DNA of 63,073 bases, the filler included, from Bilabrum cf. latius (lineage: Eukaryota): the NCBI GenBank assembly GCA_965178125.1. It is 2 parts of 2 records of this genome, joined end to end, with 100 filler letters (N's around TTAATTAATTAA, not from the genome) between each part and the next. Parts side by side here need not be neighbours in the genome. Positions count along the whole stretch, not along the records: positions 31,714 to 63,073 come from CBCXTV010000016.1; 1 more part is not named here. One strand, 5' to 3'. Below the pieces are notes generated by a model, which saw nothing but the letters and a program-made list of their open reading frames with translations, did not search any database and was not told the origin of the DNA. Positions 16,900 through 52,181 of this stretch are shown here, in pieces (the stretch's first letter is position 1; each line of letters opens with the position of its first letter). The translations under genes were made by a program, and so were the position numbers.

Positions 16900-16950
16900 C
16901 TGTAGGGTTTCACCTTTTTCCGGGAAAGTTGCGGCCATATTCCGTCCGCC
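16900..16950. repeat. Imperfect terminal inverted repeat of element A (pairs with ~30405-30456 and ~5445-5495)
   Basis: About 45 bp imperfect inverted match, beginning exactly where the 5.7 kb repeat is interrupted. Confidence 0.75.
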
Positions 16951-24543: not shown

Positions 24544-24739
24544 GAACGTAGGGGCGGCGCAATGTCACAAGCTTACGCGAAGGATCCCCGAAATATGGCT
24601 GCAAAAACACTGAATGTCAAGTCATGGAAGTCTGGCATCTGAGTGTTACGTGGATTCTTTGGTCATTTTTCTGGAGCGGTGCACTCATGTGCAGCCTCAT
24701 GACCAACTTCTTTACAGACAACTCGATTGGCAACCCACT

Positions 24740-24905
24740 CCGGGCCCGGGCCCAGGGACGCGCCCGGGCCCAAGCCCGAGCCTTGGGCCCGGACCTCCGC
24801 CCCAGCCAGGCCCGGGCCGGAGCTCGGGCTGGGGCTTGGGTTGAAGCCCAGGCTGGGATTGGACCCCGATCCAGGCCCGAATTTGGGCCTGGGTCGGGCT
24901 GGGTT
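24740..24905. repeat. GC-rich low-complexity (GGGCCC/GGGCT)n tract upstream of transposase A
   Basis: Visible degenerate hexamer repeats. Confidence 0.7.
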
Positions 24906-28807: not shown

Positions 28808-29339
28808 CTATGGCCATTGCTCTCCAATCGAGCGCGCACGGCGTCTGAGCTCCAAGCCCTGTTCTTGGCTGCAGCCGATGAAAAAGCAACGTCTAAAAAA
28901 CTCGGTCCACTCGGATGAAGCAAGCGGTCGCGAGTCGCGCGCGTCCGCAGGGACGAGCGCGGCATTCAGCACGCTCCCAGTTGAGCAATGCAACCAGGCA
29001 CGACGGTCGAGCTCCTTCAAATAATGCTGCTTTCGAACGAGAGGATTACCGGAACGACTTGGCGCGGATGCGGCTATGGCAGTGCGTCCATTCTGCACGT
29101 CTGTTATCCACGCATTGTACTGATTCCGTATGTCCGAAATGTGCCGGCGAATCCATTCCTGTGACCGCGGGCTGTCAAGCCTGCGCGCCGGGGACTGCGG
29201 CACGAGCCTCGCCGGGTTCGCTGGCCGGCGTGATAGGACTCGGGACACAAAGATCACAATTCATCCTGTGGCTGTCACCAGATGTCTGCGTAAACCACAC
29301 CGCATGCTCCGACACTGCATCTCGGATGATGTGCTCCAT
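28808..29339 (-). CDS. ORF-X, second copy in A (1-bp frameshift)
   Basis: Near-identical to 3854-4384. Confidence 0.7.
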
Positions 29340-30456
29340 GCGTGGGAATGAAAAACATGTCGCACATGCTCCCCGAAAGAAAAATCAAGCATGAGAGAAA
29401 ACATTGCTCCCCGCATCGTCCTGAAAACATCAACCTCAGTAAAGGTCATGGGAAACACCTGAGGGGTTTGTTCTCTTTTGATCGATCGCACAACGGCACA
29501 CGCACAATCGTCGGGCAAAGCATTGGCACCACGTGGCGACGACCCATACCCAAAAAAAGTCACTGCGACTCCGCACTGGCAACTCGCGCTCTCTCCGGGC
29601 AAGCCCGAAAAGCCGGGGACAATTTGCCGGGCAATGCTGATGATGAAATCCCATATAGTGAGAAGATACACGAACTCCGACAGAAACACGCTGGCCCCAC
29701 ACACAAAGATCCCCAGTGTCTATACATGCGCTAACTTTTTCCTGTACAAGATCGAGTCACACAACCAAGCGGGGATGCTAATACAACTTGACACTCGACG
29801 GTACCGCATCAATGAGGACGCTCCTTCTCAACACCGGCGCGCTGAAGATTCATGACAAACGATGACAGCCGACAAAGGCGCTTGCGTCCCAGGAACCAAC
29901 AGGGGCTCTATTCAATACGCGGAGAAAGGACTCAGAAAACGATTCTGAATGATGACGACAGGGACTAAACAGATCCATGAACAACTATGTCACACGATCG
30001 TCGGCGCAAGTAATCGCACCGCCTAGCCGGTAGCCAACGCAGCTGTACAAAGCCCTCACAGAGAGACTAGACAGTCCACATGACAACCGCCGAATCACAC
30101 GGCACACGATCGCCAACGAAACTATACACATAACATCCGCGTGGCACCGCAACTGAGAAGGCGAGAAAAAAAGAAAAAAAGGAAGCACATGAACAGTCGT
30201 TGCCGCCAAAGAGGTGCCGCTACACATGTGGTCTCGTGGGCGACTGACCGCGGGCAACGCGCAATCCGGCAGTGCCCAGTGGACATAGACCGCCACGTAA
30301 CACAGGTCTGACCACCAATCCGGGGTGCACAGACACCCTAGAGGGACGTGTATCCTGTGCCCAGACCGGATTCGATTTTCCCGGTCGGTTTCTGGGGCAC
30401 ATTCTGAGGCCGGATTCTGTCCAGGACTTCCGCGGAAAAAAGCCGATACCCTACTG

Positions 30457-31613
30457 CAGTAGGGTATCGGCTTTTTTCCGCGGAAGTCCTGGACAGAATC
30501 CGGCCTCAGAATGTGCCCCAGAAACCGACCGGAAAATCGAATCCGGTCTGGGCACAGGATACACGTCCCTCTAGGGTGTCTGTGCACCCCGGATTGGTGG
30601 TCAGACCTGTTACGTGGCGGTCTATGTCCACTGGGCACTGCCGGATTGCGCGTTGCCCGCGGTCAGTCGCCCACGAGACCACATGTGTAGCGGCACCTCT
30701 TTGGCGGCAACGACTGTTCATGTGCTTCCTTTTTTCTCGTCTTCTCAGTTGCGGTGCCACGCGGATGTTATGTGTATAGTGTCGTTGGCGATCGTGTGCC
30801 GTGTGATTCGGCGGTTGTCATGTGGACTGTCTAGTCTCTCTGTGAGGGCTTTGTACAGCTGCGTTGGCTACCGGCTAGGCGGTGCGATTACTTGCGCCGA
30901 CGATCGTGTGACATAGTTGTTCATGGATCTGTTTAGTCCCTGTCGTCATCATTCAGAATCGTTTTCTGAGTCCTTTCTCCGCGTATTGAATAGAGCCCCT
31001 GTTGGTTCCTGGGACGCAAGCGCCTTTGTCGGCTGTCATCGTTTGTCATGAATCTTCAGCGCGCCGGTGTTGAGAAGGAGCGTCCTCATTGATGCGGTAC
31101 CGTCGAGTGTCAAGTTGTATTAGCATCCCCGCTTGGTTGTGTGACTCGATCTTGTACAGGAAAAAGTTAGCGCATGTATAGACACTGGGGATCTTTGTGT
31201 GTGTGGGGCCAGCGTGTTTCTGTCGGAGTTCGTGTATCTTCTCACTATATGGGATTTCATCATCAGCATTGCCCGGCAAATTGTCCCCGGCTTTTCGGGC
31301 TTGCCCGGAGAGAGCGCGAGTTGCCAGTGCGGAGTCGCAGTGACTTTTTTTTGGGTATGGGTCGTCGCCATGTGGTGCCAATGCTTTGCCCGACGATTGT
31401 GCGTGTGCCGTTGTGCGATCGATCAAAAGAGAACAAAACCCCTCAGGTGTTTCCCATGACCTTTACTGAGGTTGATGTTTTCAGGACGATGCGGGGAGCA
31501 ATGTTTTCTCTCATGCTTGATTTTTCTTTCGGGGAGCATGTGCGACATGTTTTTCATTCCCACGCATGGAGCACATCATCCGAGATGCAGTGTCGGAGCA
31601 TGCGGTGTGGTTT
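30457..31613 (+). mobile_element. Inverted partial copy of element A terminus (fold-back)
   Basis: Reverse complement of ~29295-30456, mirrored at GATACCCTACTG|CAGTAGGGTATC. Confidence 0.85.
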
Positions 31614-31713
31614 NNNNNNNNNNNNNNNNNNNNNNNNNNNNNNNNNNNNNNNNNNNNTTAATTAATTAANNNNNNNNNNNNNNNNNNNNNNNNNNNNNNN
31701 NNNNNNNNNNNNN
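31614..31713. other. Artificial contig-joining linker (N44-TTAATTAATTAA-N44)
   Basis: Symmetric N runs surround a 12-mer with stops in all six frames; total length is 100 nt. Confidence 0.95.
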
Positions 31714-32782
31714 AACGACCGTCTTCCTCAATTTCGACGAGAGTTCGTGCCGCCTGTGGACACCGCCGAAGCCAGGTTTACTGAGTGCCCGAACACACCT
31801 CGAAGTCAGGCGCGGCCGCGTGCCGCGACAGGTGGCATCCCTCAAGAATAAGCGCACGGCTTTCTCTCTTCTCGCTTTCCTTGCAGACAATGTGGAGATA
31901 CAGAAAGCATTGCCGCAAATTCTCTTGGTGAATTCGCACACCATTTCCGCCGCTGATACGACGTGGCTCCGCGAACAAACACGGAATTCAGGAGTTACTG
32001 TAGAGCGGCGGAAAACCGCGTGGTTGAAAGGCCCAGAACTCGGTCGCGTTCTGCGACTCGCAGGCCGCGCGTTAGAGCCATGGAAGGCGTCGCACAAATT
32101 CATTCTCGCACTCGATGCCTGCCCGACGCATTGGACAGCGAGCGTCGCACGCGCAGCCGCGGAGAGCGATATCAGAATTGTGTTCGTGCCACCATGCACG
32201 ACGTCCTTCCTGCAACCACTGGATGTGCACGTCTTTCACCATTTGAAACGCGCTGCGAGAAATGGTCTCGAAGAGCTGTACATAAAACAGCCAGTGGGGC
32301 CAATTCCGAGCAGAGATGTCGTGCGCATGTGGGCCAAAGCCACGCGGGAAGTTTTGCAGGCGCGGTGCTGGAAATTCGCGTTTCTCTCTTGTGGCTTCGG
32401 GCAAGGTCAGGAGCACCTCGGCACCCGATGCAGAGCTCGCACCGGCCTGGAAGCACCCCCAACTGTAGGACACGAGCTCCCATCGCTGGAGGAGCTCCAA
32501 CTTTGTACAACAGCACGGGCACGGTTGCCGCTCGGGTGGTGGTTCCATTTGCCCGTGCGCGCGGAACGCGAAAATGCCCTTCCGGCAGCTTTTTCAGCTC
32601 TAGCGCGTCCCGAGACCGCAGCGCCAGAACTCGCCGCCCCAGACGGGGCCGCGGGCGACGCAAGCGCCTTTCGCTCGGAAGCGCCGACATGTCCGAGCGC
32701 AGCGAGGCCGCAAGCGACGACGAGCGCGCCATCGAGGCTGCCGAGAGCGCGCCGGCTCTGGCCGGCGACGCGAAGGCCGTAG
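31714..32782 (+). CDS. pogo-like DD35D transposase, 5'-truncated by contig start
   Basis: Matches exon 2 of 44511-46495. Confidence 0.85.
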
Positions 32783-33123
32783 CAGAAGAAAGGCAGCTTG
32801 ACGACGCAGTCGCTGCGACAACGGCCGCTCCCGGAGGCGCGCCGCCGAAGCCGCTCTCGACGAAAATCGACGAGCTGCGGGCGAAACAGGCGGCAATGAC
32901 AGCCGAGCGAAAGCGGGTGACAAAAGACCTCCGCAACCACGAAAAGCGACGTCGCCGTTTGAAAGCAAACGCACGTCGTCTGAGCAACGACGACCTCGCC
33001 GAGGTCATGCTCATGCGCGAGGCAAGTCGCCCGGACGCCGAGAGCGAAAAGGCCGGCGACGCAGCGTCGTCATCCGCCTCCGCGAAAAAGCCGAAAAAGA
33101 AGTCGTCCGCGAAGGAGGCGTGA
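32689..33123 (+). CDS. Small basic coiled-coil protein (B copy 1)
   Basis: MSERSEAAS...LSNDDLAEVMLMRE; homolog of 22210-22662. Confidence 0.8.
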   Translation: MSERSEAASDDERAIEAAESAPALAGDAKAVAEERQLDDAVAATTAAPGGAPPKPLSTKIDELRAKQAAMTAERKRVTKDLRNHEKRRRRLKANARRLSNDDLAEVMLMREASRPDAESEKAGDAASSSASAKKPKKKSSAKEA

Positions 33124-33827
33124 AGGCGCGCCACGCAAGCATCATATGACGACATAGTTCATGGAAGTGTTGTGGTTTGACAGGTGAATCGGAAGCATGC
33201 TATCCCGTGTGAATTTGGGTTCATTGCGCATCATGACATGGATGACTCTCAGGCGAAAGAATTGCGGCGAAAGAGACGCGCTACTGCATGAAGACCACCG
33301 GCTGACAAAAGGAGACCAGCAGACGCACCAGAGCGACACGAGAAACAAAATCGGCGAAGAGTGAAACGTCCATAAACCAGGGAGAGGAGAGAAAAACAGG
33401 CCACATCAGCCAGAATCGGAAGAAATTGGCCAGAACCGACCGAAGTCCATAAGACATCGCATTCGTAGATCTGCATCCCCCAAAATCGTTGCAAACCACC
33501 CCTTCCCGCCGACATCGGACCAGATTTGACGAAAAACGTGCGAAAATGCATAGGAGGAGAGGGGGAATGTGGGGCGGGAATGGACGGAAATCGCGAAAAT
33601 CCCCAAAAAAACCAGGAACATCGGCCCAGATGAGGTCAAAACTGTGCAAATTACCACAAAAATGCCCCCCCCAAATCCAGAGAAATCGCGAAAATCTTAG
33701 AAAAAATGGGAAAATTGGGCTAAATTCTGTGGAACAATTGCCCAAAACGAGGCGAAATGTGGCCGAAGCGTGGAAATCTCCCTAGCGCTTCGGCCCTAAA
33801 TGGTCCAAACCTAGTGTAAAATGAAGA

Positions 33828-33917
33828 AAAAAAGGGGGCCGAAGCGCCGAAGCGCTGGAAAGCGCTTTAAATATTTAAAAGCCTTTCCCAGCGCTTCTGC
33901 TTCGCCCCCCCTTTTTT
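33828..33917. other. Putative origin hairpin (B copy 1)
   Basis: About 45 bp imperfect arms centred on TTTAAAT|ATTTAAA. Confidence 0.6.
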
Positions 33918-34745
33918 AAGGGAAAATTGACCTCCAGAAAAGCAGAGGCCCAAACCAGGCAAAACCGAAAAGAAATGCCTCCAAAAAACGTGCGCGAGAA
34001 GCACGCATCGGAAAAAACAACCACTGAAAACAAGTGCCGGCCATACAATCATTAAGGGGTCCCCGTGTTGTGGATGTGGGCGCTTGCATCGTGATGGGAG
34101 AATATCGTGGGAGCGTTTGTAGTCTGTTAAGGTGTTTGCGGGAAGGAAACGAGGTCGAAAAGGAGACCTAGGTATAGGGAAGCAGGGACCCAGGGGAAAG
34201 CATGCCATGTGTCGGAAAGTGGATGAAAGAGCGTGTGACGGGCACGTGGAATCGACTTGGATCCGGCAGTGGGAATCACTCGTTCTATGTCGGGAGACGT
34301 GAGGTTCCGGTGCACATCGTTGGAAAAGGCGAGGGCGTGAGGTGAGGGTAGAGGTATAAAGAAAATCCTGGTGAGGCCGTTTGAGTCTGCGCTTCGAGGA
34401 GAAGCGAAAGGCATTTGAGGGAATTTCGGACGCGAGGTGTTCTGAATGGTTGCACGTGTGGGCCGGTGTTTCCTTTTTCGGCATGTCCTTTTTGTCGTGT
34501 GTTCCATTGACATCACGGGGTGCATACGGTAGCCTTGCGTCGCTTCACACCGCAGGAATCTGTGGAGTTCCCGGTGTCAATGCTCTCCATGTTCCCCTCA
34601 GCATGGTCACATTCGACATGGGGTCCTCTGCACAGTCCATGTGCGAGCACTCGGCGTCATGCTCTGAATCATCGTCGCTTCGTTTGCATTTTTTTTCTGT
34701 CGGAGTTGCCCAAGTGCCGAGCGGATTGTGACGCTTCGGAGTGCG

Positions 34746-36414
34746 ATGTCGTCCTCGACTGGGCAAGCTGTGGAGCATCCGACGAAGCGCCGTCGCTTTT
34801 CCGTGAAGCGACCGCCCGCGGTGGCGTCAGCGCGTGTGCCCGTGCACGAGCCGGTCTTGCCTGAGTCTCAGGCGAGCTCCGCCGCTCCGTCTGTGCACCC
34901 ATCTCCGTCTGCCGCCCAAGCCGCAGGCAGTGCTGACGGTGCGCGCCGACGCGACATTGCCCTCGGGGCTGTCGCAGATCAATCCGCGAGCAGCTCTCTG
35001 GATCACGCTGCGTACACAAAGTTGTGGCTACGCCTGTCGCGATGGGTCGTGTCGAGTGGGACGGCGGCGGAGAAGACTGTATGGGCGACCCACGGTTTAC
35101 GCCGCGAGCCCGGCAGTGTCCTGCGCGATGACCAGTGCGCGCTGCTGCGCCGTTTTCTGGATAGTCGGTCCGATCTTCCGGAATGTGTGCAGCAGGTTGG
35201 CGCGTGTCTCATCCGCGGCCACCGGTCTGGCTCCCAAGGCGTCCAAGGCGGTGCTTCTGAGAGCCGTCCCGCGACGCGTTTGTTTTTGTTGAATGGGCCA
35301 TGGGGGCTTGTGCCTTCCTTGATTTTTCAACCAGGCAACCCGGCAGTGGACGTCGACACGGTTGCGATGTCTGTGTCGTTATCGGCGTGGTTTACTGCGC
35401 TGCGTGTTGCCTTTCTTGCGTGGCTCATGCCCTTTGTGGAGCACTGGCGTGTTGTACAGTATGTGTGGTGCGCGGAAGTGTCGCCGACGACCATTCGTGC
35501 TCCCCACTCGCAAGCCCGTGTTCATTTTCACATTGCATTGCGTGCGCCCTCGGCGGTGTTAGAGTACTTCACGGGGTGTATGTTTCAAAGAATATCCTCG
35601 CCCGTTGTGTCTTTGTGCGTCGCCGAACGTGTGCGTGGTGCTGCACGCGGTTTTCAAGGGTTTTTTTTACGTGCAGGCGCCGAAGTTTGGTCGCGTAGAC
35701 GGCGGTGGAAGTGTCGAGATGTTTCATGACTATCTCGTTCAAGCCGACTGGATTATACAGTTACTCCAGTCCGGCAAAATTTCCGTTGGTACTGCGCGTC
35801 GGCTGTCTGTGCGCGTAGTGCGAAATCTCCCAAACATGCTTCGAACCTTGGCGGCTTATGAATCGGCCACATCCGAGGCGAGTTTGGAAGCGCACGTACA
35901 GGCTGTCCAAGCAGAGTTGCGAGGAGGGATGTGCCCCTTTCGAGAGATAGACGTCGTCTCCGAGTGGTTAGCGGAGTTCAACCGTCTTGCATCCCGCTAT
36001 CGCTTTTTAATTTTGGACGGCCCCTCCTGCGTCGGAAAGACGCAGTATGCATGCTCTTTGGCCCATACCGGCCATGTCTTTTTCTGTGATTGCCAACAAG
36101 CAACACAGCCCGATCTTCGGTGTTTTCGACCGCTGCATGATGAGGTGATTGTGATGGATGAGGCTTCGGCATCCTTAGTCATCCACAACAAACGCCTCTT
36201 TCAGGCGCCTGCGGAGTGGGTGTCCTTGTCCCACACGGCGACGAATATGTACAGTTATCGCCAGTGGGTTCACCGCGCGAAGATTGTTGTTTGTTGCAAC
36301 GATTGGAACGCGGGTTTAAATGTTTTGTCAGCGTCGGAGAGAGAGTGGATCCAGGACAACAGCCGGTATTATTATGCCGGTGAAGCGCTGTGGGTCCCGC
36401 GTACCGCGCTGTAA
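34746..36414 (+). CDS. rep: HUH+SF3 Rep (B copy 1; 1-bp homopolymer frameshift at ~35660)
   Basis: Same protein as 48522-50189 apart from one extra T in a T run. Confidence 0.85.
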
Positions 36415-36559
36415 TTTTCTCTTGTGATTGAATCTATATTTCGAAAGCGCGTTTCTTGGCAGGGAGAGGAACGCGTTTGCTGTGCGTCGGAGGTGCGTGT
36501 CCTGCAGACATTGTGGAGGGGAGTGTCGTCTTTGTATTTTTCGGTCGCCACATGCGGGC

Positions 36560-36861
36560 AGTATTCTGGGCCTAAATTCGTGTCCGAAACGTGGACGCGT
36601 TTTGCGATTTTCCCTGTGGGTCTCTGCCTCGTCATGGTTAACGAGGGGCGTGTTAGGCCGTCTGCCTGATCCGTGTCGGTTTCCTGCGGTCTACGTCCGT
36701 GAGAGGAGAGCGTGCAAAATTGTTGCTTGGCGGCCGCTGTGCGGACATGCGGTTTCCATGTCATGGTGTGTCCTGCAGTGAGCGGGCATCTGTGTAGACG
36801 TGCGGTCTGTGCATCATCTTGTCGCGGATGTGACGGCGGGAAAAATATTTTCTTCAATGTC

Positions 36862-36934
<73 letters not shown>

Positions 36935-36961
36935 CCCGTGCGCCCATGGTGGACTGCCGGT
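36560..36961 (+). repeat. Diverged direct copy of the element B left subterminal region (38506-38845)
   Basis: GTATTCTGGGCC...GTGGACGCGTTTTGCG...CCCTGTGGGTCT.TGCCTCGTCATGGT.AACGAGGGGCGT...GGCGGGAAAAATATTTT...CGTGCGCCCATGGT is shared. Confidence 0.8.
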
Positions 36962-38394
36962 CATTGATTTCGGGTTGTCATGACGATTTGTCGCTTGGCC
37001 ATCTCACTTTCCCATGATATTTCGTCACTAATTTCAGACCTTCCTAGATGATTTCGAGTCGTGCATTCTTGTCGGGCGGCGAAACGGCGAGGTCATGATT
37101 GCGCCAGTTGGCTTTTCGGACCCTGTCCCGTCTACCGGGCCCGTTTTAAATTGGCCGGCTTTTTTGGCGCGGTCCCGTCCGACTCGGCAACAGGTGTGCC
37201 ACACAGCCCGTCAAGGTAACTCCGCGAGAGGTACGCGGGAAGGCCCGCCACGGCCGCATCTCTGCGGACGCCCGCGTCGCAAGCGAAAGGTAGCTTCTCC
37301 TCCGCTCAGATTTTGAAGTTAAGGAACCTGTAGAAAGGCACCAGGACGCGGTCGACGTCGTCATCGTCAAACCGCAGCTCACCATGCACGACGTCTTGTA
37401 AGACGTCGCGTTCCACCTGCGTACGCACACGGCTGGCTGGCCCGACCCCCGCCCGCCCTCCGTCGCCTGCCTCCTCGTTATTGGGGTTTTTTGTTTTGCA
37501 AATACGACGTGAAGAAGGGGTCCGGACCTGGTCCTCTTGTGAAAAACCCAACTGGCGCATCCATCACCGTGTGTGTGTAAGGTAAGGTAAACTGCCGCAT
37601 GCATTGCTCCGTAGGCTGATAGAAAATGACGTGTCCATGACAGAATTTTGTTCCAAGTCGCACGAACCGAAAAATCCCCCATTTCCCTGGAAACCCTGCT
37701 TCTGGACGCGTGTTCGAATATAGATTGTCTTTTTCTCTCTACGGTCGGGAAGACGGGCGGGCGGGTGAGCGGCCGGGCGGGCGCGCGCGCGGACCGGTGG
37801 GCAGGCGGGCGGGTTAGTGGGCGTCCGGATGGGCGGTGAGGCTAGCGCGCGGCCGGGTGGGCCCGCGGGTGTGCAAGCGTGAAGGAGTAGATCGCGAGAG
37901 AGACTAGCGATTTGTTTTGGTATGGATCGCCAAGGGAAACACTGCCAACATTGCTCCGAATGGACCTAAATCGCGGAGAGGTTGTTTTCATTGCTGACGC
38001 ATGTTGCTCATTTTTTGCGGGAATCACGGTCCTGGACAATGAGTTTTGATTGCCGAAATCGGGCCGGATTTGGTCCATAGATCGCGACACTTCTGGCTAA
38101 TGGAGTCAAAGTGGACAAAGCTTCGATAAAATTCGTGAGAATCTCTGGGAATTTCTCTGACGCATGTGGCCAAATGCAGCACACTCTTCCCGGTCCGCAA
38201 AGGTGTGGCGCAGTCTACACGTAGAACGTTCTTGTGCGTTCGGTTGCTCGGTGCTTTTCCGCACCCGTGTAGTGCAGTTTGTCTGCTGGCGCCGTCTGTT
38301 ATTCTGCAGGAAAGTCGCGTGTGGCTGGGGCACTGTGTAGAGTGCCCCCCCCGGAGGTGTGCTGGTCGGCGGTCCGCGCCGCGGGCCTATTTCA

Positions 38395-38493
38395 GCGGCC
38401 GGAAAACGGCCGCAAAAAATAGAGGAAAAAAAGGGGACCCAACAGTCGGGTCCCCCATTTTTGCCCCCGGTTTTGGTGCCGTTTTCCGGCCGC
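38395..38493. repeat. TIR-TIR junction between adjacent B copies
   Basis: GCGGCCGGAAAACGGC...GGGGACCC-AA-CAG-TC-GGGTCCCC...GCCGTTTTCCGGCCGC, exactly symmetric about 38444. Confidence 0.72.
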
Positions 38494-38820
38494 GAAATGG
38501 TGGCCGTATTCTGGGCCCAATTTCGCGTCCGCCAGGTGGACGCGTTTTGCGGTCCTCCCTGTGGGTCTGTGCCTCGTCATGGTAAACGAGGGGCGTCTGA
38601 GGCAGTCTGCGTTATCCGTGTCGGTGCCCTGTGGCACAAGTCCGTCACAGGAGAGCGCGCCAAATTGTTGTCTAGCACCCGCCGTGCTGGCGTGCGGTTT
38701 TGCGGTCCTGGTGTGTCCTGTAGGGTGCGGGCATTTGTGTAGACCTGTGGTCTGTGTATGACATTGTTGCGGAAGCGAGGGCGGGAAAAATATTTTTATC
38801 TCATAGTTTCTTCTCTTTTG

Positions 38821-38845
38821 CGTGCGCCCATGGTAAGCTGCCGGT
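38821..38845 (+). promoter_or_regulatory. Dispersed conserved motif (CGC)CGTGCGCCC-N4-5-(G)AGCTGCCGGT, 7 per B unit
   Basis: Copies at 36936, 38821, 40136, 42067, 43393, 43537 and 48217, plus equivalents in the next unit. All are on + and intergenic. A regulatory role is inferred. Confidence 0.55.
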
Positions 38846-39061
38846 CCTTGATATGCGATTTTCAGGACAATACGGAGATTGGCCATGTCATTGTCCCATG
38901 TCTGCGTGGAACAGCATGAGCGTATCATGGCATTGTTTTCTCGCATGCATCTTTTCCAAGTGATCATTCATTCCTCTCCGAAATGTTGGTGCTCGCATTC
39001 AGACGTCGTTTGATTGCGTCTTTTTGTCGCCCCATCCCGAGTTTCCTCTTCATCCGTGGGT

Positions 39062-39511
39062 ATGGCGTGGTATGGAAGTGCTTCGCCCATTTCTCCGGCT
39101 GATGAAGCGGAAGAGGTGGTGGACATGCCGGCGTCCTCAAGCGCTGCTGGCGAAAAGGTGAGCGACCCGTCCGCATGGGTGCGCTCATATATGCGCTCGT
39201 GTGAAGCGCAGTACAGGAGATGGGTGCAGTCGCTCCACGACTCGAGGGACGAGGGCGTGAAATATCAGTGGTGGACAGACGCTGAGTTTCGCAAAGCCGG
39301 CGTACCGCCGCGGTTGCCGTGTGAGAGCCCTGCCTTCGGGACGGAGAAAGGGTTGCCATGGATTGTTTTCCATAAGCACCCTGATCTGGTGCCCATCGGC
39401 CACGCCGAGTGGCAAGAATTCAATCGGCGCATTCGGTGGCTCGGATGTACGCCGACCCAGGGCGTCGAACTCCGACGTCGTGCTCGCGAAGTCGGTGTCA
39501 AATGGCCGTAA
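39062..39511 (+). CDS. ORF-X (B copy)
   Basis: Homologous to A 3854-4384; first gene after the terminus in both elements. Confidence 0.8.
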   Translation: MAWYGSASPISPADEAEEVVDMPASSSAAGEKVSDPSAWVRSYMRSCEAQYRRWVQSLHDSRDEGVKYQWWTDAEFRKAGVPPRLPCESPAFGTEKGLPWIVFHKHPDLVPIGHAEWQEFNRRIRWLGCTPTQGVELRRRAREVGVKWP

Positions 39512-40540
39512 AACGCCATGACGCCTTTGTGTTCGTGACGACCGGCATGAAACAGACAGTGCCGGGCAACGCGAACTTTGTTTTGTATAGCTTGTTTTTT
39601 CAATGTATAGTGCGTGCTTGTGTCCCGCAACAAACCTTGAGCATCCGTTGTCATTGCGGTTCGGATGGAAAGATCCGTTGCCGGAGTCTGATGATGCTTA
39701 CGCAGGGCTTGTCGGACAACATGTCTGTGCAGAAGGCAATTTCATATGTTTACTCGCTCTGTCAGAATTTGGTCTTGGTGATTGTCACACGAAAAGAATT
39801 GACCGGCCGCGACCATACCGTGTGTGTGTGTGTGAAAGTGTTATCATTTTTTTGATCGATCCACCAATGTGGCTAGTCTCATTTCTCGGAAGCAGTCCAT
39901 TCGGATTTGCATGAGTTCCGTGCACGACACTGCATTGGCTGTTTTTTTCCGTCACCTTTCGTAGCCGATCACATGCTTGTGCCATCAGGGAGTCGGACGG
40001 GCAAGTGTGTCTGCATCTGTGGCGCATGTGAAAAGAAGCGCAAAGCGCGATGGAGAATGTCATTAACAATGCCTTCCTGCATTGGTATGTGAATGTTCGA
40101 GAAAGGGACTGATCATTGTTTTCTTTTTCATGTCTCGCCGTGCGCCCAAGGAGAGCTGCCGGTGGAAACAAGTTGTGCTTTCATCACGTCTTTTTTTTGC
40201 GGAGGTGCACATGGTGATGGAAACTTGCAGCTCTGATCTTCTTCCAATCTTGGTCATGCTCGTCACAGCGGTAGCATTCATTGGTACAGGCATGGTGTTT
40301 TCGCAGCAAGTGCGAGAGTGATGTTGCAGGTCACTTCCCTATGAGAAACGGGCGTTCACGCGGGGACGCTAATGAGCAGGCGGCACGGTGGACCTTCGGA
40401 GAGGCGAACAGTCGGGCGAGCGGACGGGCGGTCTTCGGGCCTAGAACCGAGCGTGAGTTATATGTGTTTCGCATGATTTTTTTCAGCGAGTGTCAGAGCG
40501 TCCCGAAACGATCCGCGCGCAATAAACCCGCGAGCGTATC

Positions 40541-41191
40541 ATGGCTTCTCGGTCGTGCGCGATTGAGGGATGCTCGAACGTCGCTGCGGTCCGCTGCTTG
40601 GCTGTCGGCGGACCTTACTGTGGGGCGCACTGCAGTTGTGAGGGACACAGCCATCGACTCTCGCGCCCCGGCGCGCGTCGTGGAGAGGGGTCACAACTCA
40701 GGCGCTCCTTGCATGGAATTCGGTATGAGGCGCTTTGGGAACTCCGTGATTGCGGCACGTATTTGGTGTATGATGAGAAGATGTTGTGCCTCGCGTACAA
40801 CATCGAATCTGTCACTGGTGCGATGAAGTTCGTGATTGCGGTGTTTGCGGCGCGTCTTGCATGGGACACGTTGCCCACGGAGCATCGCGCATGTGTCGCG
40901 GTGGCTTGGACAACGTTGTCCGAAGCGCTGGGGGCGACTCGAAGGGGTCGCATGCTCGAGAGTTTGCGGTCATCTATGAATGCCGCAGACGTTGCTGACG
41001 TCGGGATGCGAGTTGCCCGCATGTGGGCGCGGGCGTTGACTCCGATCTCGTCGTTGTCAGCGAGCTCGAGCGCGGCCTCCTCGTCGCGCGAGCGCACGCC
41101 GCCACCACTTCGGTCGTCGAGTGTTGCAGCAGCGATGGCGGAGGTAATATCGGCATGCGTACTTGTAGCGGGGACACGGCATGGCTTTTAG
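40541..41191 (+). CDS. Hypothetical protein with N-terminal Cys/His cluster (putative Zn finger)
   Basis: CAIEGC...RC..GGPYCGAHCSCEGH followed by a helical region. ATG start downstream of the conserved motif. Confidence 0.5.
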   Translation: MASRSCAIEGCSNVAAVRCLAVGGPYCGAHCSCEGHSHRLSRPGARRGEGSQLRRSLHGIRYEALWELRDCGTYLVYDEKMLCLAYNIESVTGAMKFVIAVFAARLAWDTLPTEHRACVAVAWTTLSEALGATRRGRMLESLRSSMNAADVADVGMRVARMWARALTPISSLSASSSAASSSRERTPPPLRSSSVAAAMAEVISACVLVAGTRHGF

Positions 41192-41331
41192 GAACATTGC
41201 AGTCATTCGTTTGAGTGATCTGGGTACTTTCCTCGAGCATTTTTCTTGGCCTTTTCATACGAGCGTGGAGTTTTTCTGAGGAGGCATCCACCGCGCAACA
41301 GTTTCCTTATGACAGGGAATGTCTGACATTT

Positions 41332-42035
41332 CCGGGCGGGTGGGCGGCCCGGAGTGCGGGCGCGCGGGCGGGCCTGTTCGCGGGCAGGCGGGCGGAGGAC
41401 GGGCGGGCGGGCGGGCAGGCGGGCGGGCGGGCGAGTGGTCGGGCGAGCGATCGGGTGGGTGCGCGGGCGATCGGGCGGGCGGGGGAGCGGGCAGAAAGCC
41501 GAGGGGCTATCCGGTGGAGCTGTTGGGCCGGCGAGCCCGCGGGTCGCCACGCGTACGCGCGTGGGCGCGCGCGGGTGTGCGCAAGCAGGCGAGCGCGCGC
41601 ACGCGTGGGCAGGCAGGCTCGCGGGCGGACGGGTCGGCTGGCTGTCGGACGGGCGGACGGACGGGCGGCCGGGTGGGCGGGAGCGAGCGTGCGCGAGTGG
41701 ATTGGTGTAGGCGGGCGGGCGCGCGGGCTAGCCAGCGGGTTCGCGAGCGGGCGGGCCACGGGCGGACGGAGGCGCGAGCGGGCAAACCGGCCAACGGGCC
41801 TGAGGGCCGGCGAGCGGGCTGGCGGGTGGGCGCCCGGGCGGGCCGGTGGGCGGGCCTCTGGGCGGACGCACGGTCGAGTGGGCGGGCAGGCGTGCGGGCA
41901 ATTGGGTGAAAGGGCGGGCGGGTGCACGCGGGTGGGCGGACGAAAGGGCGAGCGGGCGAGCGGTCGTACGGGCGGGCGGGCGGGCAGACGGGCGGACGGG
42001 CGAGCGGGCGGGCGCGCGGGCGGGTCGCCACGGGC
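41332..42035 (+). repeat. Strand-asymmetric (GGGC)n low-complexity tract
   Basis: Degenerate GGGC/GGAC repeats; also at 37750-37870 and 43636-44000, and in the next unit. Confidence 0.85.
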
Positions 42036-42217
42036 GGAGTGTATCCATTCAGTGGTCTTTTTTTTCCGCCGTGCGCCCTCGTGAGCTGCCGGTGTTTTGT
42101 CCAGAAATATGAATCTGAACGCGGGAAGGACCGAGCATTTTTTCTTCTTGGATTCATACCCAGGTCTCCAGCGCCTCTATATACAAAACATGGCTTGGGC
42201 CTTGGAAAGAAAAGGTG

Positions 42218-43324
42218 ATGGCGACAAGCAGCGTCGACCAGGCGTCGATCACGGAGGCGGTCGCGAGGGCGGACATTCCGGCAGAGCTGGTCTCCGAGGC
42301 GGAGATAGCGAACGCGCCGGAAATGCCCGCCGCAACGGCAAGCCGGGTGACGACTGAGAGCGGCACGACCCTAGGCGCCTATCTCATGGTCGATGAATTG
42401 CCGTCATACGCACGGCGTTTTAAGGGCATGCCTGGCGACGTTCCGCCGTGGCCGCCCACGGCCCAGAGGCCAGCCGGGCCCCTAGCTTGGCGAGGCGGTA
42501 TGGGCCGTTTCATGTGGGACGGCGTGGAGAACGCGCCGGCCCCGCACATCCGGCGGTGGCGCGGAACTAATCCAGTCATCGCTCTGGATGCTGGTCGGAC
42601 CCGAAGCTTCACTCGTTGGGTCGCCGCAGGCGGTTCGATAGGGCGACGCGACGCCCGACCGATTACAGCGGTCCATACCTTGTGGGAATGGATCGCGACC
42701 CGACCGCGGTTGGTGAATGGCATTCTTCGCGGTGCCATAGACCGCCCGGAGGGTTCTTTTTCTCCCCTCGGTTTCTATGTGCGATTCGATTTGCCCGCGG
42801 CAGACAGGATCGCCACGGATTTCGACGAGACCCGGTTCCGAACGAGCTTCCATGGTACAGCGCTGGAAGTACTTCACCGCATTGTTTTTGGCGGTCTCGC
42901 GACCGGGTGGGCTCGGAATTTTGAGGCCGGGCGGGAGTTGCAGGGAATTTATACATTCGCGCCTCAACGTGCGCATCTTTTGTCGTCGTATATATTGTAC
43001 AGTGCCCTCGACGACTCGGGGTGGTTGTATGGTCCTTTTTTAGAGGTCCGCAGTCCACACGATGATCCGCAAAAGCGGAAAACCGTCCTGCGCCGATCAG
43101 GCGGAGGGGACCGCCACCAGTGGATCTCCTACCCCGATAGCACTTTTCCCACGCATGTCTGGGTGCACATTGTGCACGTGTCAACGCTGTACTTGCATCC
43201 CGCAGACGCGGGTGTGTCTCTGTACGCGGAACCGGCATTCCAGCATTCGCTGGAAGTACACCCAGACGCAAGCTGGGAATACCTTTTGCATGCGAGTAGG
43301 CAGGCAGCGGACGTGGTTGTCTAA
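42218..43324 (+). CDS. Putative ADP-ribosyltransferase (PARP-like H-Y fold) cargo protein
   Basis: SFHGT-x6-RIVFGGL...QGIYTF...SSY...LEV...HQW pattern matches the ART/PARP catalytic scaffold. Intact and identical in both copies. Confidence 0.6.
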   Translation: MATSSVDQASITEAVARADIPAELVSEAEIANAPEMPAATASRVTTESGTTLGAYLMVDELPSYARRFKGMPGDVPPWPPTAQRPAGPLAWRGGMGRFMWDGVENAPAPHIRRWRGTNPVIALDAGRTRSFTRWVAAGGSIGRRDARPITAVHTLWEWIATRPRLVNGILRGAIDRPEGSFSPLGFYVRFDLPAADRIATDFDETRFRTSFHGTALEVLHRIVFGGLATGWARNFEAGRELQGIYTFAPQRAHLLSSYILYSALDDSGWLYGPFLEVRSPHDDPQKRKTVLRRSGGGDRHQWISYPDSTFPTHVWVHIVHVSTLYLHPADAGVSLYAEPAFQHSLEVHPDASWEYLLHASRQAADVVV

Positions 43325-44510
43325 GAAGGATACGTGTCCTCTGCTGCGATGGAATGCGATGGACTGTGATCGCGTGCATGGAAAATCCACATCGCCGTGC
43401 GCCCACGTGAGCTGCCGGTGTACCCTTGGCATGTCTCACTTGGTCAATGTTATGATGACGACATGCAGGAAATGGTGAAAGCGCGTGACGCTTCACTAGC
43501 ACGAGCTCATGCCCACGCTTCCATCTAGAGACACATCGCCGTGCGCCCACGTGAGCTGCCGGTGTCGCGTTTGCATGTGTGAGTTGCTCAATTTTCTCAT
43601 GATGGAATTCATCACAGTAAGAATTGGCATGCGACTGGGCAGGTGAGCGGGGAGCCGAGCGGGCGGGCGGACGGGCGGACGGGCCAGCGGGTGGACGGGA
43701 GGGCGGGCTAGCGGGCGGGCGGGCGGGCGGACGGCGGGGCGGACGGGCCGGTGCGCGGGCGAACGGACGGGCTTGCAGGCGGGCGGGCGGGCGCGCGAGC
43801 TGATGGACGGAATGACACGCGGGTGGGCGGGAGGGCGGGCGGGCAGGTGGGCGGGCGGGCGAGCGGGGGGGCGGGCGGGCGGACGAGCTCATGTGCGGGT
43901 AGACCAAGGGCGAACGGGAGAACGGGCGGGCGGGCAGGAGGGCCGGCGGGCGGGCGGGCGGGTGGACTTGCGGACGAGCGGGTGGGCGGGAACCAGCGGA
44001 CGCAGACTCTTTTGCAGAACGGAGTCGTTCCTTGTTCTCGTGGATTTTTGGTTGTATGATGGCGACCCCAGGCACATTCCACGAAGAAGTCGAAGCAGGA
44101 AAAGCCCAAGGTAGAGGGCGGAAGTTCACCATGGCTGAGTCCGCAATCGCGGGGAAAGGGAATCCCAAGTTCTATGATGCCGCGATTACCTAGGCCAAAC
44201 GCTTATTCCGGAAATGATCTGGGGCACGTTGGAAAAAGGGCCACAGGAGAGCAGGACTCAACATACGAGATCCGTGAAAAAAGGGCTGTACCAAAACCCC
44301 GCCGAGCATGCAGCGAAACTTGATGACGACGACGCAAATGACGAACTGTGGTTAGCGCACCCCGCAACACGAGAACCACGCACTGCAAGCGCATCCGCCA
44401 GTGCACACTTCCCTACAGGGACCTGTAACACGGCACGAAAGCCCCCCGACAGCGGCATCTTGTCTGCAGCCCTTTTCGCGAGCCGCCTCTGAAAAGCTGA
44501 GGCCCGAACG

Positions 44511-46495
44511 ATGAAAAGGTCCGCCATCACCGACGCACGTGCGCGCCGCAATGACCTCACGGATGCTTTACGCAAAATGCGGAGCGAAATCCGGGCGGAA
44601 GAGCGACGCGATGCCGAGCGTACCGCAGACACGGCGAGCGATGTTGAGGTGACCGACAAGAACTGCACACCTCGATATCGAGACACCGCGATCGTGATTT
44701 ACATGCGTGTCCCAGACAGCGGGAAGGCAGCGCAAACCTTCCTGGAAGTATCCCTCGGGCGGAAATTGGGCGTGCCCGTCAACGCGGCGAAGTTCATGAA
44801 CGTGGTGCGAGAGAAAAGTACCGCAACAAACATGAACAACGAGGCCACGACGGGATGGTGGAATCGACGACAAAGCGACGCCGAGAAGTATCTGCGCGAA
44901 AAAGATCTGGTGCAATGGATCGATGAGCAGAACCGGGGACGCGGTCTCGCGCCGAGTACTCGGACCGTCTACACACAACGCACGCGCGCTTCGGCATGCG
45001 AAAGTGTGGCCACTGCCGCTCACGACGTCCCATTGCATGCAGCGCTCCCCCCGCGAAGGAAAAAATGGATGCGTGGCTTTATGCGTCGATGGGCGCTACG
45101 CCGCGGCACGCTCCCCTCCGGGACGGGCACGACGACGGAGGAGGCGGCACGGAAGGTTCCGGCAGGAAAGAGCCCCACATTTGCCCCACCGGCGGCTCCC
45201 AAAAAATCGCCCCCCGGGCCACTTTTGCGGGCCCAGTTTGGCGGCCAGAAAATGGCCACGATTTGGGGCCCACGCATTCATTCCACCACATGGGGGGTGG
45301 CCGGATTCCGGCCGCAGAATCGGGCCCGCCAAATCGTCCCACAGACCACCGCGTTCCCGGCAAACACGAGGCAACGGCCATGTGGAAGTGGGCGAATTTT
45401 TTGGAGCACACCGTGCCGCACAACAAAACGACCGTCTTCCTCAATTTCGACGAGAGTTCGTGCCGCCTGTGGACACCGCCGAAGCCAGGTTTACTGAGTG
45501 CCCGAACACACCTCGAAGTCAGGCGCGGCCGCGTGCCGCGACAGGTGGCATCCCTCAAGAATAAGCGCACGGCTTTCTCTCTTCTCGCTTTCCTTGCAGA
45601 CAATGTGGAGATACAGAAAGCATTGCCGCAAATTCTCTTGGTGAATTCGCACACCATTTCCGCCGCTGATACGACGTGGCTCCGCGAACAAACACGGAAT
45701 TCAGGAGTTACTGTAGAGCGGCGGAAAACCGCGTGGTTGAAAGGCCCAGAACTCGGTCGCGTTCTGCGACTCGCAGGCCGCGCGTTAGAGCCATGGAAGG
45801 CGTCGCACAAATTCATTCTCGCACTCGATGCCTGCCCGACGCATTGGACAGCGAGCGTCGCACGCGCAGCCGCGGAGAGCGATATCAGAATTGTGTTCGT
45901 GCCACCATGCACGACGTCCTTCCTGCAACCACTGGATGTGCACGTCTTTCACCATTTGAAACGCGCTGCGAGAAATGGTCTCGAAGAGCTGTACATAAAA
46001 CAGCCAGTGGGGCCAATTCCGAGCAGAGATGTCGTGCGCATGTGGGCCAAAGCCACGCGGGAAGTTTTGCAGGCGCGGTGCTGGAAATTCGCGTTTCTCT
46101 CTTGTGGCTTCGGGCAAGGTCAGGAGCACCTCGGCACCCGATGCAGAGCTCGCACCGGCCTGGAAGCACCCCCAACTGTAGGACACGAGCTCCCATCGCT
46201 GGAGGAGCTCCAACTTTGTACAACAGCACGGGCACGGTTGCCGCTCGGGTGGTGGTTCCATTTGCCCGTGCGCGCGGAACGCGAAAATGCCCTTCCGGCA
46301 GCTTTTTCAGCTCTAGCGCGTCCCGAGACCGCAGCGCCAGAACTCGCCGCCCCAGACGGGGCCGCGGGCGACGCAAGCGCCTTTCGCTCGGAAGCGCCGA
46401 CATGTCCGAGCGCAGCGAGGCCGCAAGCGACGACGAGCGCGCCATCGAGGCTGCCGAGAGCGCGCCGGCTCTGGCCGGCGACGCGAAGGCCGTAG
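44511..46495 (+). CDS. pogo-like DD35D transposase; exons 44511-45155 and 45371-46495 (~589 aa)
   Basis: NFDES, LALDACPTH and FLQPLDVH with DD35D spacing. GT-AG intron 45156-45370 (AAG|GT...AG|G) joins EEAARK to ATAMWKW in frame. Confidence 0.9.
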
Positions 46496-46836
46496 CAGAA
46501 GAAAGGCAGCTTGACGACGCAGTCGCTGCGACAACGGCCGCTCCCGGAGGCGCGCCGCCGAAGCCGCTCTCGACGAAAATCGACGAGCTGCGGGCGAAAC
46601 AGGCGGCAATGACAGCCGAGCGAAAGCGGGTGACAAAAGACCTCCGCAACCACGAAAAGCGACGTCGCCGTTTGAAAGCAAACGCACGTCGTCTGAGCAA
46701 CGACGACCTCGCCGAGGTCATGCTCATGCGCGAGGCAAGTCGCCCGGACGCCGAGAGCGAAAAGGCCGGCGACGCAGCGTCGTCATCCGCCTCCGCGAAA
46801 AAGCCGAAAAAGAAGTCGTCCGCGAAGGAGGCGTGA
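46402..46836 (+). CDS. Small basic coiled-coil protein (B copy 2)
   Basis: 144 aa, overlapping the transposase stop in another frame; homolog present in A. Confidence 0.8.
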   Translation: MSERSEAASDDERAIEAAESAPALAGDAKAVAEERQLDDAVAATTAAPGGAPPKPLSTKIDELRAKQAAMTAERKRVTKDLRNHEKRRRRLKANARRLSNDDLAEVMLMREASRPDAESEKAGDAASSSASAKKPKKKSSAKEA

Positions 46837-47472
46837 AGGCGCGCCACGCAAGCATCATATGACGACATAGTTCATGGAAGTGTTGTGGTTTGACAGGTGA
46901 ATCGGAAGCATGCTATCCCGTGTGAATTTGGGTTCATTGCGCATCATGACATGGATGACTCTCAGGCGAAAGAATTGCGGCGAAAGAGACGCGCTACTGC
47001 ATGAAGACCACCGGCTGACAAAAGGAGACCAGCAGACGCACCAGAGCGACACGAGAAACAAAATCGGCGAAGAGTGAAACGTCCATAAACCAGGGAGAGG
47101 AGAGAAAAACAGGCCACATCAGCCAGAATCGGAAGAAATTGGCCAGAACCGACCGAAGTCCATAAGACATCGCATTCGTAGATCTGCATCCCCCAAAATC
47201 GTTGCAAACCACCCCTTCCCGCCGACATCGGACCAGATTTGACGAAAAACGTGCGAAAATGCATAGGAGGAGAGGGGGAATGTGGGGCGGGAATGGACGG
47301 AAATCGCGAAAATCCCCAAAAAAACCAGGAACATCGGCCCAGATGAGGTCAAAACTGTGCAAATTACCACAAAAATACCCCCCCAAATCCAGAGAAATCG
47401 CGAAAATCTTAGAAAAAATGGGGAAATTGGGCTAAATTCTGTGGAACAATTGCCCAAAACGAGGCGAAATGT

Positions 47473-47629
47473 GGCCGAAGCGTGGAAATCTCCCTAGCGC
47501 TTCGGCCCTAAATGGTCCAAACCTAGTGTAAAATGAAGAAAAAAAGGGGGCCGAAGCGCCGAAGCGCTGGAAAGCGCTTTAAATATTTAAAAGCCTTTCC
47601 CAGCGCTTCTGCTTCGCCCCCCCTTTTTT
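47473..47629. other. Putative origin of B: overlapping hairpins with GCCGAAGCG iteron-like repeats
   Basis: Hairpin 47540-47629 is centred on TTTAAATATTTAAA. An alternative 12-bp stem GCGCTTCGGCCC/GGGCCGAAGCGC also forms. Same position as the TAATATTAC hairpin in A. Confidence 0.6.
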
Positions 47630-48521
47630 AAGGGAAAATTGACCTCCAGAAAAGCAGAGGCCCAAACCAGGCAAAACCGAAAAGAAATGCCTCCAAAAAA
47701 CGTGCGCGAGAAGCACGCATCGGAAAAAACAACCACTGAAAACAAGTGCCGGCCATACAATCATTAAGGGGTCCCCGTGTTGTGGATGTGGGCGCTTGCA
47801 TCGTGATGGGAGAATATCGTGGGATCGTTTGTAGTCTGTTAAGGTGTTTGCGGGAAGGAAACGAGGTCGAAAAGGAGACCTAGGTATAGGGAAGCAGGGA
47901 CCCAGGGGAAAGCATGCCATGTGTCGGAAAGTGGATGAAAGAGCGTGTGACGGGCACGTGGAATCGACTTGGATCCGGCAGTGGGAATCACTCGTTCTAT
48001 GTCGGGAGACGTGAGGTTCCGGTGCACATCGTTGGAAAAGGCGAGGGCGTGAGGTGAGGGTAGAGGTATAAAGAAAATCCTGGTGAGGCCGTTCGAGTCT
48101 GCGCTTCGAGGAGAAGCGAAAGGCATTTGAGGGAATTTCGGACGCGAGGTGTTCTGAATGGTTGCACGTGTGGGATGCATCATGTAGGAACAGGAATGTG
48201 AATTCGTCTGGCTTTTCGCCGTGCGCCCGTTGAGAGCTGCCGGTGTTTCCTTTTTCGGCATGTCCTTTTTGTCGTGTGTTCCATTGACATCACGGGGTGC
48301 ATACGGTAGCCTTGCGTCGCTTCACACCGCAGGAATCTGTGGAGTTCCCGGTGTCAATGCTCTCCATGTTCCCCTCAGCATGGTCACATTCGACATGGGG
48401 TCCTCTGCACAGTCCATGTGCGAGCACTCGGCGTCATGCTCTGAATCATCGTCGCCTCGTTTGCATTTTTTTCTGTCGGAGTTGCCCAAGTGCCGAGCGG
48501 ATTGTGACGCTTCGGAGTGCG

Positions 48522-52082: not shown

Positions 52083-52181
52083 GCGGCCGGAAAACGGCCG
52101 CAAAAAATAGAGGAAAAAAAGGGGACCCAACAGTCGGGTCCCCCATTTTTGCCCCCGGTTTTGGTGCCGTTTTCCGGCCGC
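52083..52181. repeat. Second TIR-TIR junction of B
   Basis: Same sequence as 38395-38493. Confidence 0.72.

Follow-up and report, generated by a model that had tools for sequence, protein, structure and literature searches.

A CAG-centred joint between inverted-repeat ends in a tandem array of a 13.7-kb element encoding a pogo-type transposase and a Rep-like protein

The palindrome at positions 38395-38493 is read here as the joint between two head-to-tail copies of a 13.7-kb element, B, whose terminal inverted repeats (TIRs) face each other across a single CAG. B belongs to a family that encodes a DDE transposase together with a Rep-like protein and that appears to integrate at CWG trinucleotides, and we propose that joints of this kind are formed in a cycle of circularisation and Rep-driven copying. 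For this reading as a whole we estimate a probability of about 0.55.

Transposons that move by cut-and-paste and replicons driven by Rep are, in eukaryotes, generally regarded as distinct kinds of mobile DNA. In the present family both enzymes are found in one 13.6-kb unit, kept between lineages that have no other detectable DNA similarity, and the pairing of a pogo-type transposase with a virus-like replication protein in a single element is unusual. With the joint accounted for in this way, it is the element family and the possible dual use of one site that hold the interest; as a short DNA site, the end joint offers a testable handle on binding by the transposase, nicking by Rep, the formation of circles and the choice of target.

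Organisation of the window

The window, by which we mean the whole stretch of DNA analysed, comprises 63,073 nucleotides of Bilabrum cf. latius (assembly GCA_965178125.1). Its spacer at 31614-31713 consists of runs of N around a six-frame stop linker, TTAATTAATTAA, so the window is two contigs joined artificially and the adjacency of A and B is itself artificial. In contig 2 (31714-63073), copies of B that are 99.3-99.8% alike by BLAST follow one another head to tail with a period of 13,688 bp; within the window this contig contains only B, which is seen adjoining no non-B DNA. Contig 1 (1-31613) is a 25.09-kb higher-order repeat in the order A-C-C, A being a second element and C a shorter repeat unit. 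A scan of the entire window against Rfam gave no matches. The units are as follows.

38446-52130, plus strand: element B, full copy, 13,685 bp
31714-38442 and 52134-63073, plus strand: element B, partial copies
16903-30453, minus strand: element A, full copy, 13,551 bp, to judge from its sequence a diverged relative of B, with its genes on the minus strand
1-5492, minus strand: element A, second copy, partial, 99% identical to 25090-30453 and followed by CTG at 5493-5495
5496-16899: two tandem C units of 5.7 kb each (5496-11196 and 11200-16899), a satellite-like repeat, possibly of the host
30457-31613, plus strand: inverted partial copy of the end of A, forming a palindrome with 29292-30456, terminal in contig 1

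That C is a host repeat is hinted at by contig depth, which in one and the same public run is 164 for C and about 20-35 for A (5- to 8-fold). The C units contain sub-repeats of 374 bp and roughly 76 bp and encode, on the minus strand, Gly-rich GGGMDF-like repeats; they also contain two pieces of A, one of 196 bp (98% identical) and one of 101 bp (96% identical). None of the eight ORFs compared with Pfam, namely five from C, the small conserved ORF described below and two others, matched any family.

The palindromic joint

38395-38493: B-B junction, made up of the right TIR of the upstream copy, CAG, and the left TIR of the downstream copy
38443-38445, plus strand: the single 3-bp core, CAG, between abutted B ends
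52083-52181: second B-B junction, 13,688 bp further on, with its CAG core at 52131-52133

Across its centre the junction reads GGGGACCC (38433-38440), AA, CAG (38443-38445), TC and GGGTCCCC (38448-38455). This agrees with the preliminary description, in which B copies met at a single CAG between perfect 16-bp outer arms symmetric about 38444; the arms are found at 38395-38410 and 38478-38493. Overall, the junction is an imperfect palindrome of 99 bp centred on 38444, with 49-nt arms that are 78% complementary and lie 1 nt apart. The folding energy of the 99-mer as a single DNA strand is -37.4 kcal/mol, where shuffled sequences give -18.3 +/- 3.0 (z -6.4), and none of 200 shuffles did as well. 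Its inner stem of 8 bp, closed by a 7-nt loop, also folds in isolation (-9.1 kcal/mol, z -3.1).

The pattern ACCCNNCWGNNGGGT occurs twice in the window, against 0.03 occurrences expected, and since both matches are copies of one repeat unit they amount to one independent site. Among viral contigs it had no match. Among genome contigs it picked out eight bacterial stretches, which were taken as chance palindromes with A/T runs and set aside.

A and B as members of one family

A single 26-nt match is all that blastn finds between A and B. When A is reverse-complemented and both elements are started at the core trinucleotide, tblastx shows the two to be colinear, with a DDE block (A 6995-7672 against B 7149-7826, 43% identity over 226 aa), a Rep block (A 10873-11406 against B 11203-11736, 38% over 178 aa) and a small ORF block (50% over 46 aa). 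The gene order is the same in both: a small ORF, the transposase, a coiled-coil ORF and the Rep-like gene, followed by about 2 kb to the far end. On these sequence comparisons the two elements have diverged from one another within a single family. The conserved small ORF lies inside the gene-left end, at 39014-39511 in B and at about 29155-28799 in A. The earlier statement that the junctions sit just upstream of an open reading frame, there called ORF-X, is thus true only loosely, since the small ORF occupies a region some 0.6-1.1 kb inside the gene-left ends.

Because the colinearity is counted from the core, the centre of the B palindrome corresponds to the physical ends of A. A tandem array could in principle be cut into units at any point; here the homologous element supplies the termini, and the view of 38395-38493 as a joint between the TIRs of two head-to-tail B copies, spaced by CAG, is supported, as the preliminary description had proposed.

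The ends of A were fixed as breakpoints between repeat copies, found by BLAST independently of any motif. They read GATACCC-TA-CTG at 30445-30456 and CTG-TA-GGGTTTC at 16900-16911, the very sequences that had been quoted for A beforehand; in the other A copy the corresponding end is GATACCC-TT-CTG (5484-5495). For a breakpoint defined in advance, the chance of a CWGTNGGGT match is, as a rough estimate, about 3e-5 per site. Read inward from the trinucleotide, the left and right ends of B begin CAGTCGGGTCCCCCATTTTT and CTGTTGGGTCCCCTTTTTTT, and the gene-left and gene-right ends of A begin CAGTAGGGTATCGGCTTTTTT and CTGTAGGGTTTCACCTTTTT. All four tips share CWG-T-N-GGGT followed by a run of T, and both elements, oriented by their genes, have CAG as the trinucleotide at either end, so that the common polarity claimed earlier is borne out.

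Beyond the tips, the four termini can be aligned as inverted repeats over about 55 nt, with 35-43 identical positions of 53-55 aligned in pairwise comparison and shuffle z-scores of 4.7-8.5. The two ends of A are identical at 39 of 55 aligned positions, and the gene-right ends of A and B at 38 of 55. Some 40-50 nt in stands a distal motif, TTCCG-CCGC, whose distance from the tip is equal for the ends of A and B and whose symmetric placement looks like that of putative paired protein-binding sites. That about 55 nt have been kept on both arms with no other detectable DNA similarity between A and B argues for functional cis sites.

The insertion site of A

16900-16902, plus strand: CTG flanking the low-coordinate end of A
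30454-30456, plus strand: CTG flanking the high-coordinate end of A, with the fold-back axis directly after it
11197-11199, plus strand: CTG of the empty site at the joint between the two C units (C1 and C2), the paralogous uninterrupted form of the A insertion site

The C1-C2 joint reads CCCCGCGAAGCGTCCCCACGAA CTG TTGGCGACCCCGTCTTTCGAAC (22 nt, CTG and 22 nt), and in its uninterrupted form has ACGAA-CTG-TTGGCG at its middle. The low-coordinate flank of A is identical to the left 22 nt of this joint at all 22 positions, and is followed by CTG and then the TIR. In the copy of A that ends at 5492, the TIR is followed by CTG and then by the right 22 nt of the joint, again with 22 of 22 identical. 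The filled site therefore carries CTG on both sides of A where the uninterrupted site has a single one. The preliminary description had set a CWG core against the TA that pogo elements normally duplicate; the comparison of one CTG at the empty site with two at the A-filled site speaks, at this one insertion, for the former. The TA dinucleotides of A are absent from the empty site and hence belong to the element ends, which removes both a TA duplication and a footprint of the Tc1 type as readings of the A termini.

These flanks suggest, from one insertion event, that A may have generated a 3-bp CWG target duplication. Within the 25-kb repeat, both A copies stem from a single event, which makes n = 1. 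The inverse picture, in which a C dimer would have been inserted into an A-A joint, accounts for the sequence equally well, and 3 bp would be repeated either way. Sites of the form ACGAM-CTG-TTGGCG number 12 in the two C units. The idea that C is itself a TIR element of the same family was rejected, its two ends mismatching each other (z about 2).

The transposase

58228-60213, plus strand: B pogo-type DDE_1 transposase ORF, 661 aa, intact in this copy
44511-46495, plus strand: B transposase in the other copy, split into two overlapping ORFs
22521-23678, minus strand: A DDE_1 transposase ORF, 385 aa from the first ATG

Both transposases match Pfam DDE_1 (B at E 1.1e-8 and 35.3 bits, A at E 3.5e-10 and 40.2 bits, with a cut-off of 22), and no other transposase family in Pfam, DDE_Tnp_4 included, was matched. 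In an alignment of A, B and six database relatives (33-58% identity), the first catalytic Asp is present in all eight rows, and the second and third in all seven rows that reach them. Conservation of the DDE triad across A, B and the database relatives argues for a working enzyme, as far as sequence can tell. We considered whether an ordinary pogo element might be nested inside B and rejected this, as no inverted repeats frame the DDE gene and the gene is colinear in A and B.

The Rep-like protein

48357-50189, plus strand: B ORF for the Rep-like protein, 610 aa, bearing HUH and Tyr motifs and an SF3 helicase
34746-36414, plus strand: B Rep-like gene in the other copy, split
19048-20490, minus strand: A Rep-like frame, open for about 480 codons, with a 330-aa ORF from the first ATG

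Both elements thus encode a Rep-like protein beside the transposase, a gene that the preliminary description had missed. The ORF matched no Pfam family and, by phmmer, nothing in the PDB. Its relatives are numerous: an HMMER scan of cluster representatives returned 1,695 at E <= 0.001, 1,154 at 1e-10 and 463 at 1e-30. Of ten clusters looked up, none has a name, and a family scan of ten relatives gave nothing above the cut-off and only weak P-loop matches. The Rep gene accordingly belongs to a large unnamed protein family without a Pfam model.

An alignment of 93 rows was built from the two window sequences and 91 of 152 database proteins, with shorter matches and P0003 excluded. Invariant throughout are H86, H88, Y134 and K139, and, among the Walker A and B residues, G251, K257 and E298. 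From this alignment, AlphaFold2 modelled the core (residues 230-610) at a pLDDT of 93; an earlier model from a 5-row alignment, at pLDDT 38, was unusable. The best Foldseek match of the model is full-length AAV2 Rep68 (E 4e-9, 467 columns, TM 0.27), and further matches are papillomavirus E1, Vientovirus Rep, PCV2 Rep and B19 NS1. In VIA, where the aligned rows cover mainly residues 221-377 and barely the N-terminal part, the ATPase reaches the same Z of 10.4 with two references, the PCV2 Rep ATPase and SV40 large T antigen. Look-alikes in the protein atlas, to be treated as leads only, are Cressdnaviricota Rep clusters and one Parvo_NS1 cluster. An SF3/AAA+ helicase fold is therefore well supported for the modelled protein. 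The predicted nuclease domain is supported by the motifs and the full-length alignments to Rep68 and Vientovirus Rep only, and we read the protein as a putative nuclease-helicase Rep.

The longest contig recorded for a transposase relative with 59% identity (P0165) is 15,388 bp, and the figure for a Rep relative (P0152) is the same, which hints that the pair travels together elsewhere too. Among viral contigs, a search by alignment found no Rep relatives in 80 pattern matches.

How the joints may arise

In the cycle that we favour, the transposase would excise the element and the ends would close into a circle retaining one copy of the trinucleotide. Rep would copy this circle in a rolling-circle mode, giving head-to-tail multimers, and circles or multimers would re-integrate at CWG or persist as episomal concatemers. 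In arrays so produced, every joint would be TIR-CAG-TIR. A point against such a cycle is that circles produced by Sleeping Beauty mutants are described as dead ends in the available part of one report (PMC6943129). What the sequence shows is how the copies are built, that A and B are homologous, that their termini are conserved, that a 3-bp repeat flanks one insertion and that the catalytic motifs are intact; circularisation and Rep-driven multimerisation we infer, with either the transposase or Rep as the candidate maker of the joint. Nicking and joining by Rep beside CWG would yield an identical sequence with no duplication. Since Rep is encoded by both elements, rolling-circle concatemers would be a ready source of head-to-tail arrays; Rep is thus a possible second route to arrays and gives the palindrome a possible second role. 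Amplification of a unit after one insertion into a flanking trinucleotide is another possible route.

A more ambitious version of the same idea casts the element as a transposable replicon: a transposon of the pogo superfamily that captured a parvovirus- or CRESS-like Rep and passes through a circle, in which the abutted TIRs serve both as replication origin and as transposase substrate. It would select CWG sites that mimic its own joint, form multimers that give rise to arrays, and possess a linear form ending 3 bp outside the TIR. If the linear form ends at exactly that point, the fold-back at 30456/30457 would be explained. We offer this version tentatively and consider it rather doubtful.

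It is unlikely, in our estimation, that the arrays grew simply by re-insertion beside a resident copy. The DDE transposase would in that case favour CWG in end-like sequence, a second copy would land in the trinucleotide flanking the first, and the duplication would leave one CAG between the two, with Rep uninvolved in the array. The target of A does resemble a joint of the B type on one side, its right half being CTG-TTGGCGACCCC against CTG-TTGGGTCCCC when the B joint is reverse-complemented; the left end of C scores z 4.3-4.4 against the right TIR of B; and the repeat of 3 bp flanking A is what staggered integration by a DDE enzyme would ordinarily leave. This account, however, draws on a single known target site and needs an independent exact insertion for every joint of an array. 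Both joints are identical and the copies nearly so, to which amplification of a unit is at least as good a fit.

Less probable again is that the palindrome is a rolling-circle hairpin origin, nicked in the 7-nt loop, with Rep carrying out strand transfer beside CWG. One CAG would then be derived from the target and the other from the element, there would be no duplication, and the DDE protein would be a passenger or have another role. The HUH, Tyr and helicase motifs are conserved in the Rep-like protein, the inner stem-loop folds alone, and the polarity of the core relative to the genes, CAG, is the same in A and B. The available part of the Replitron report (PMC10288648) also describes short direct repeats at or near the termini of those elements. 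Against such an origin stand the roughly 55 nt conserved on both arms and the symmetric TTCCG-CCGC, which resemble paired binding sites for a transposase and are unlike a short stem with one-sided iterons, as well as the conserved DDE triad in A, B and their database relatives.

We regard it as improbable to a still greater degree that B is a free 13.7-kb circle or replicative concatemer that the assembly has rendered as 2.3 tandem units, in which case the joint would be a genuine circle junction without a tandem array in the chromosome. Contig 2 holds B only within the window, two contigs are here joined by an N and stop-linker spacer, and contig 1, in its fold-back, shows assembly oddities. 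Moreover, of the 24 indel events between B copies over 10.9 kb, 21 fall in single-letter runs, as long-read errors do. Over the same distance, however, there are 18 substitutions (12 of them transitions), and the larger indels measure 65, 62, 26 and 10 bp; the substitutions and larger indels point to distinct copies.

That excision of the Tc1 type left the 7 bp separating the perfect arms as its footprint in a palindromic site, or that the palindrome is a feature of a 13.7-kb satellite with no role as an end, is barely credible: the in-silico A spacer, TA-CTG-TA, does equal the canonical 7-bp footprint of Sleeping Beauty given in the available part of one report (PMC6943129), and a tandem repeat has no intrinsic phase, but the empty site lacks the TA that arrives with A, the B spacer AA-CAG-TC has no TA, and the independent breakpoints of A coincide with the centre of the B palindrome.

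Relation to known systems

The resemblance to pogo and Tigger elements, of the IS630-Tc1-mariner superfamily, lies in the DDE_1 match above the Pfam cut-off, the Asp triad, the TIRs, and gene-left tips that begin CAGT. A typical pogo element is 1-3 kb long and duplicates TA. The present family, in contrast, has no TA duplication, has gene-right tips of CTGT, reaches about 13.6 kb, and carries several ORFs including Rep; it is 5 to 10 times larger than pogo and Tc1-mariner elements. AAV2 Rep68, PCV2 Rep and Vientovirus Rep share with the Rep-like protein the layout of nuclease and SF3 helicase and are among its best fold matches. In parvovirus and CRESS-DNA virus systems, terminal or origin palindromes serve as Rep substrates. 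The present element differs from them in lacking a match at the sequence level and a recognised capsid gene, in being far larger and in carrying a transposase.

Duplications of 3 bp, CWG in some families, are known from PIF/Harbinger elements; here, unlike in that group, the only Pfam transposase match is DDE_1 and not DDE_Tnp_4. Closer in logic are the bacterial IS30, IS3/IS911 and IS21, which form circles or tandem dimers whose inverted repeats lie 2-3 bp apart and act as the integration substrate, and some bacterial IS elements also target their own ends. These are prokaryotic, use other transposase families and have no Rep, so that the resemblance is one of logic only. If the arrays come from replicated circles, the joints would be a eukaryotic counterpart of such reactive IS junctions.

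The closest precedent that we found is the TBE element of Oxytricha, which is of the Tc1/mariner type. According to the part of the report that was available (PMC6765146), TBE makes a 3-bp ANT duplication and is excised as a circle with one copy of it between the TIRs, the other copy remaining at the donor site. The junction described here is likewise TIR, N, 3 bp, N, TIR, and both are TIR elements of the DDE superfamily with a 3-bp duplication, which here rests on one insertion with flanks identical at 22 of 22 positions. The differences are several. TBE ends consist of telomeric repeats, and the A and B tips are non-telomeric (CWGTNGGGT and a T run); TBE circles are developmental by-products, and a Rep gene and chromosomal head-to-tail arrays are not described for TBE in that part of the report. 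The present family is of the DDE_1 (pogo) type and 13.7 kb long, with its joint in an assembled tandem array. If a pogo-type enzyme makes the CWG duplication, this would be a second exception to the TA rule, besides ciliate TBE.

A Rep-like ORF, transposase ORFs and TIRs (37 bp) also come together in the geminivirus-like transposon of Tuber melanosporum (Liu et al. 2011, PMC3198968). Its Rep is geminivirus-like and recognisable by sequence, however, and the element is a reconstructed consensus with interrupted ORFs, for which no duplication was found and for which the available part of the article describes no tandem joints. Replitrons, in the part of the account at hand (PMC10288648), have a Y1 Rep without a fused helicase and no DDE transposase, and in this differ from the present elements, which have a helicase domain and a DDE gene. 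A search of the literature for CWG duplications found nothing relevant, and one for eukaryotic elements combining Rep with DDE, or Rep-like with pogo-type genes, found in the portions of the articles that were available only the Tuber case and Replitrons.

Public sequence data and further observations

Of the 16 sequencing runs listed, 13 contain part of A, and none of those listed is an RNA run. In public contigs of four runs, bearing four organism labels, A is found at 90-99+% identity, and near-identical A (16950-26900) occurs in runs of several organism labels from nine studies. Such sharing across labels would fit a symbiont, a parasite or a contaminant, or one species labelled in several ways. 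A public contig of 1,423 nt bridges the boundary between C and A (16845-18270), and a loose end at 16903 in public contigs continues as the empty C-C form. The end-to-end joint of A (30453 to 16903) was not among the contigs listed, which are short Logan contigs from four runs and say nothing either way; 30453-30456 was likewise absent from the Logan matches listed, and neither a circle junction nor other copies with different flanks were retrieved. In one public run, a contig matches the end of C through CTGTAGGG at 16907 and then continues as different sequence, possibly the terminus of a third member of the family in a comparable site.

Contig 1 closes with a fold-back (29292-31613, axis at 30456/30457), in which the last 1,157 bp of A are repeated in inverted form, with 3 substitutions and 6 indels between copy and original. 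The axis coincides with the outer limit of the flanking CTG, so that CTGCAG stands in the middle. The fold-back may be due to an artefact of assembly where a real molecule ended, reflect a true inverted duplication, or be left over from a linear form with a hairpin end.

Of 175 pattern matches among metagenome contigs in the search with the Rep alignment, one proved to be a relative, and it is the sole related DNA locus found. This 1,227-bp contig (L001) covers the 3' end of the Rep gene at 92% identity and diverges at window positions 36527/50302, before any terminus. It departs from B exactly where an internal direct copy begins (36527): the first 0.4-0.5 kb or so inside the left end of B is repeated in direct orientation about 1.9 kb before the right end, at around 80% identity (36537-37016 against 38482-38900, and also from 50312 against 52170 onwards).

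Poly-T and periodic arrays are present inside B at 36864-36934, 37733-37888, 41336-41933 and 43613-43942. The poly-T run, of about 70 nt, varies in length between copies, and the long arrays, with 8- and 12-nt periods of the GGGCGGGC type, have a strong GC skew. A further palindrome lies in coding sequence, in the linker of the transposase, at 58934-59058 and also at 45220-45345; it measures 125 bp, with 44-nt arms that are 73% complementary, and contains motifs resembling the distal TIR motif (GGCGGCCAGAAAATGGCC). At the matching place in A (23700-23880) there are repeats of the CCAAAATCC type.
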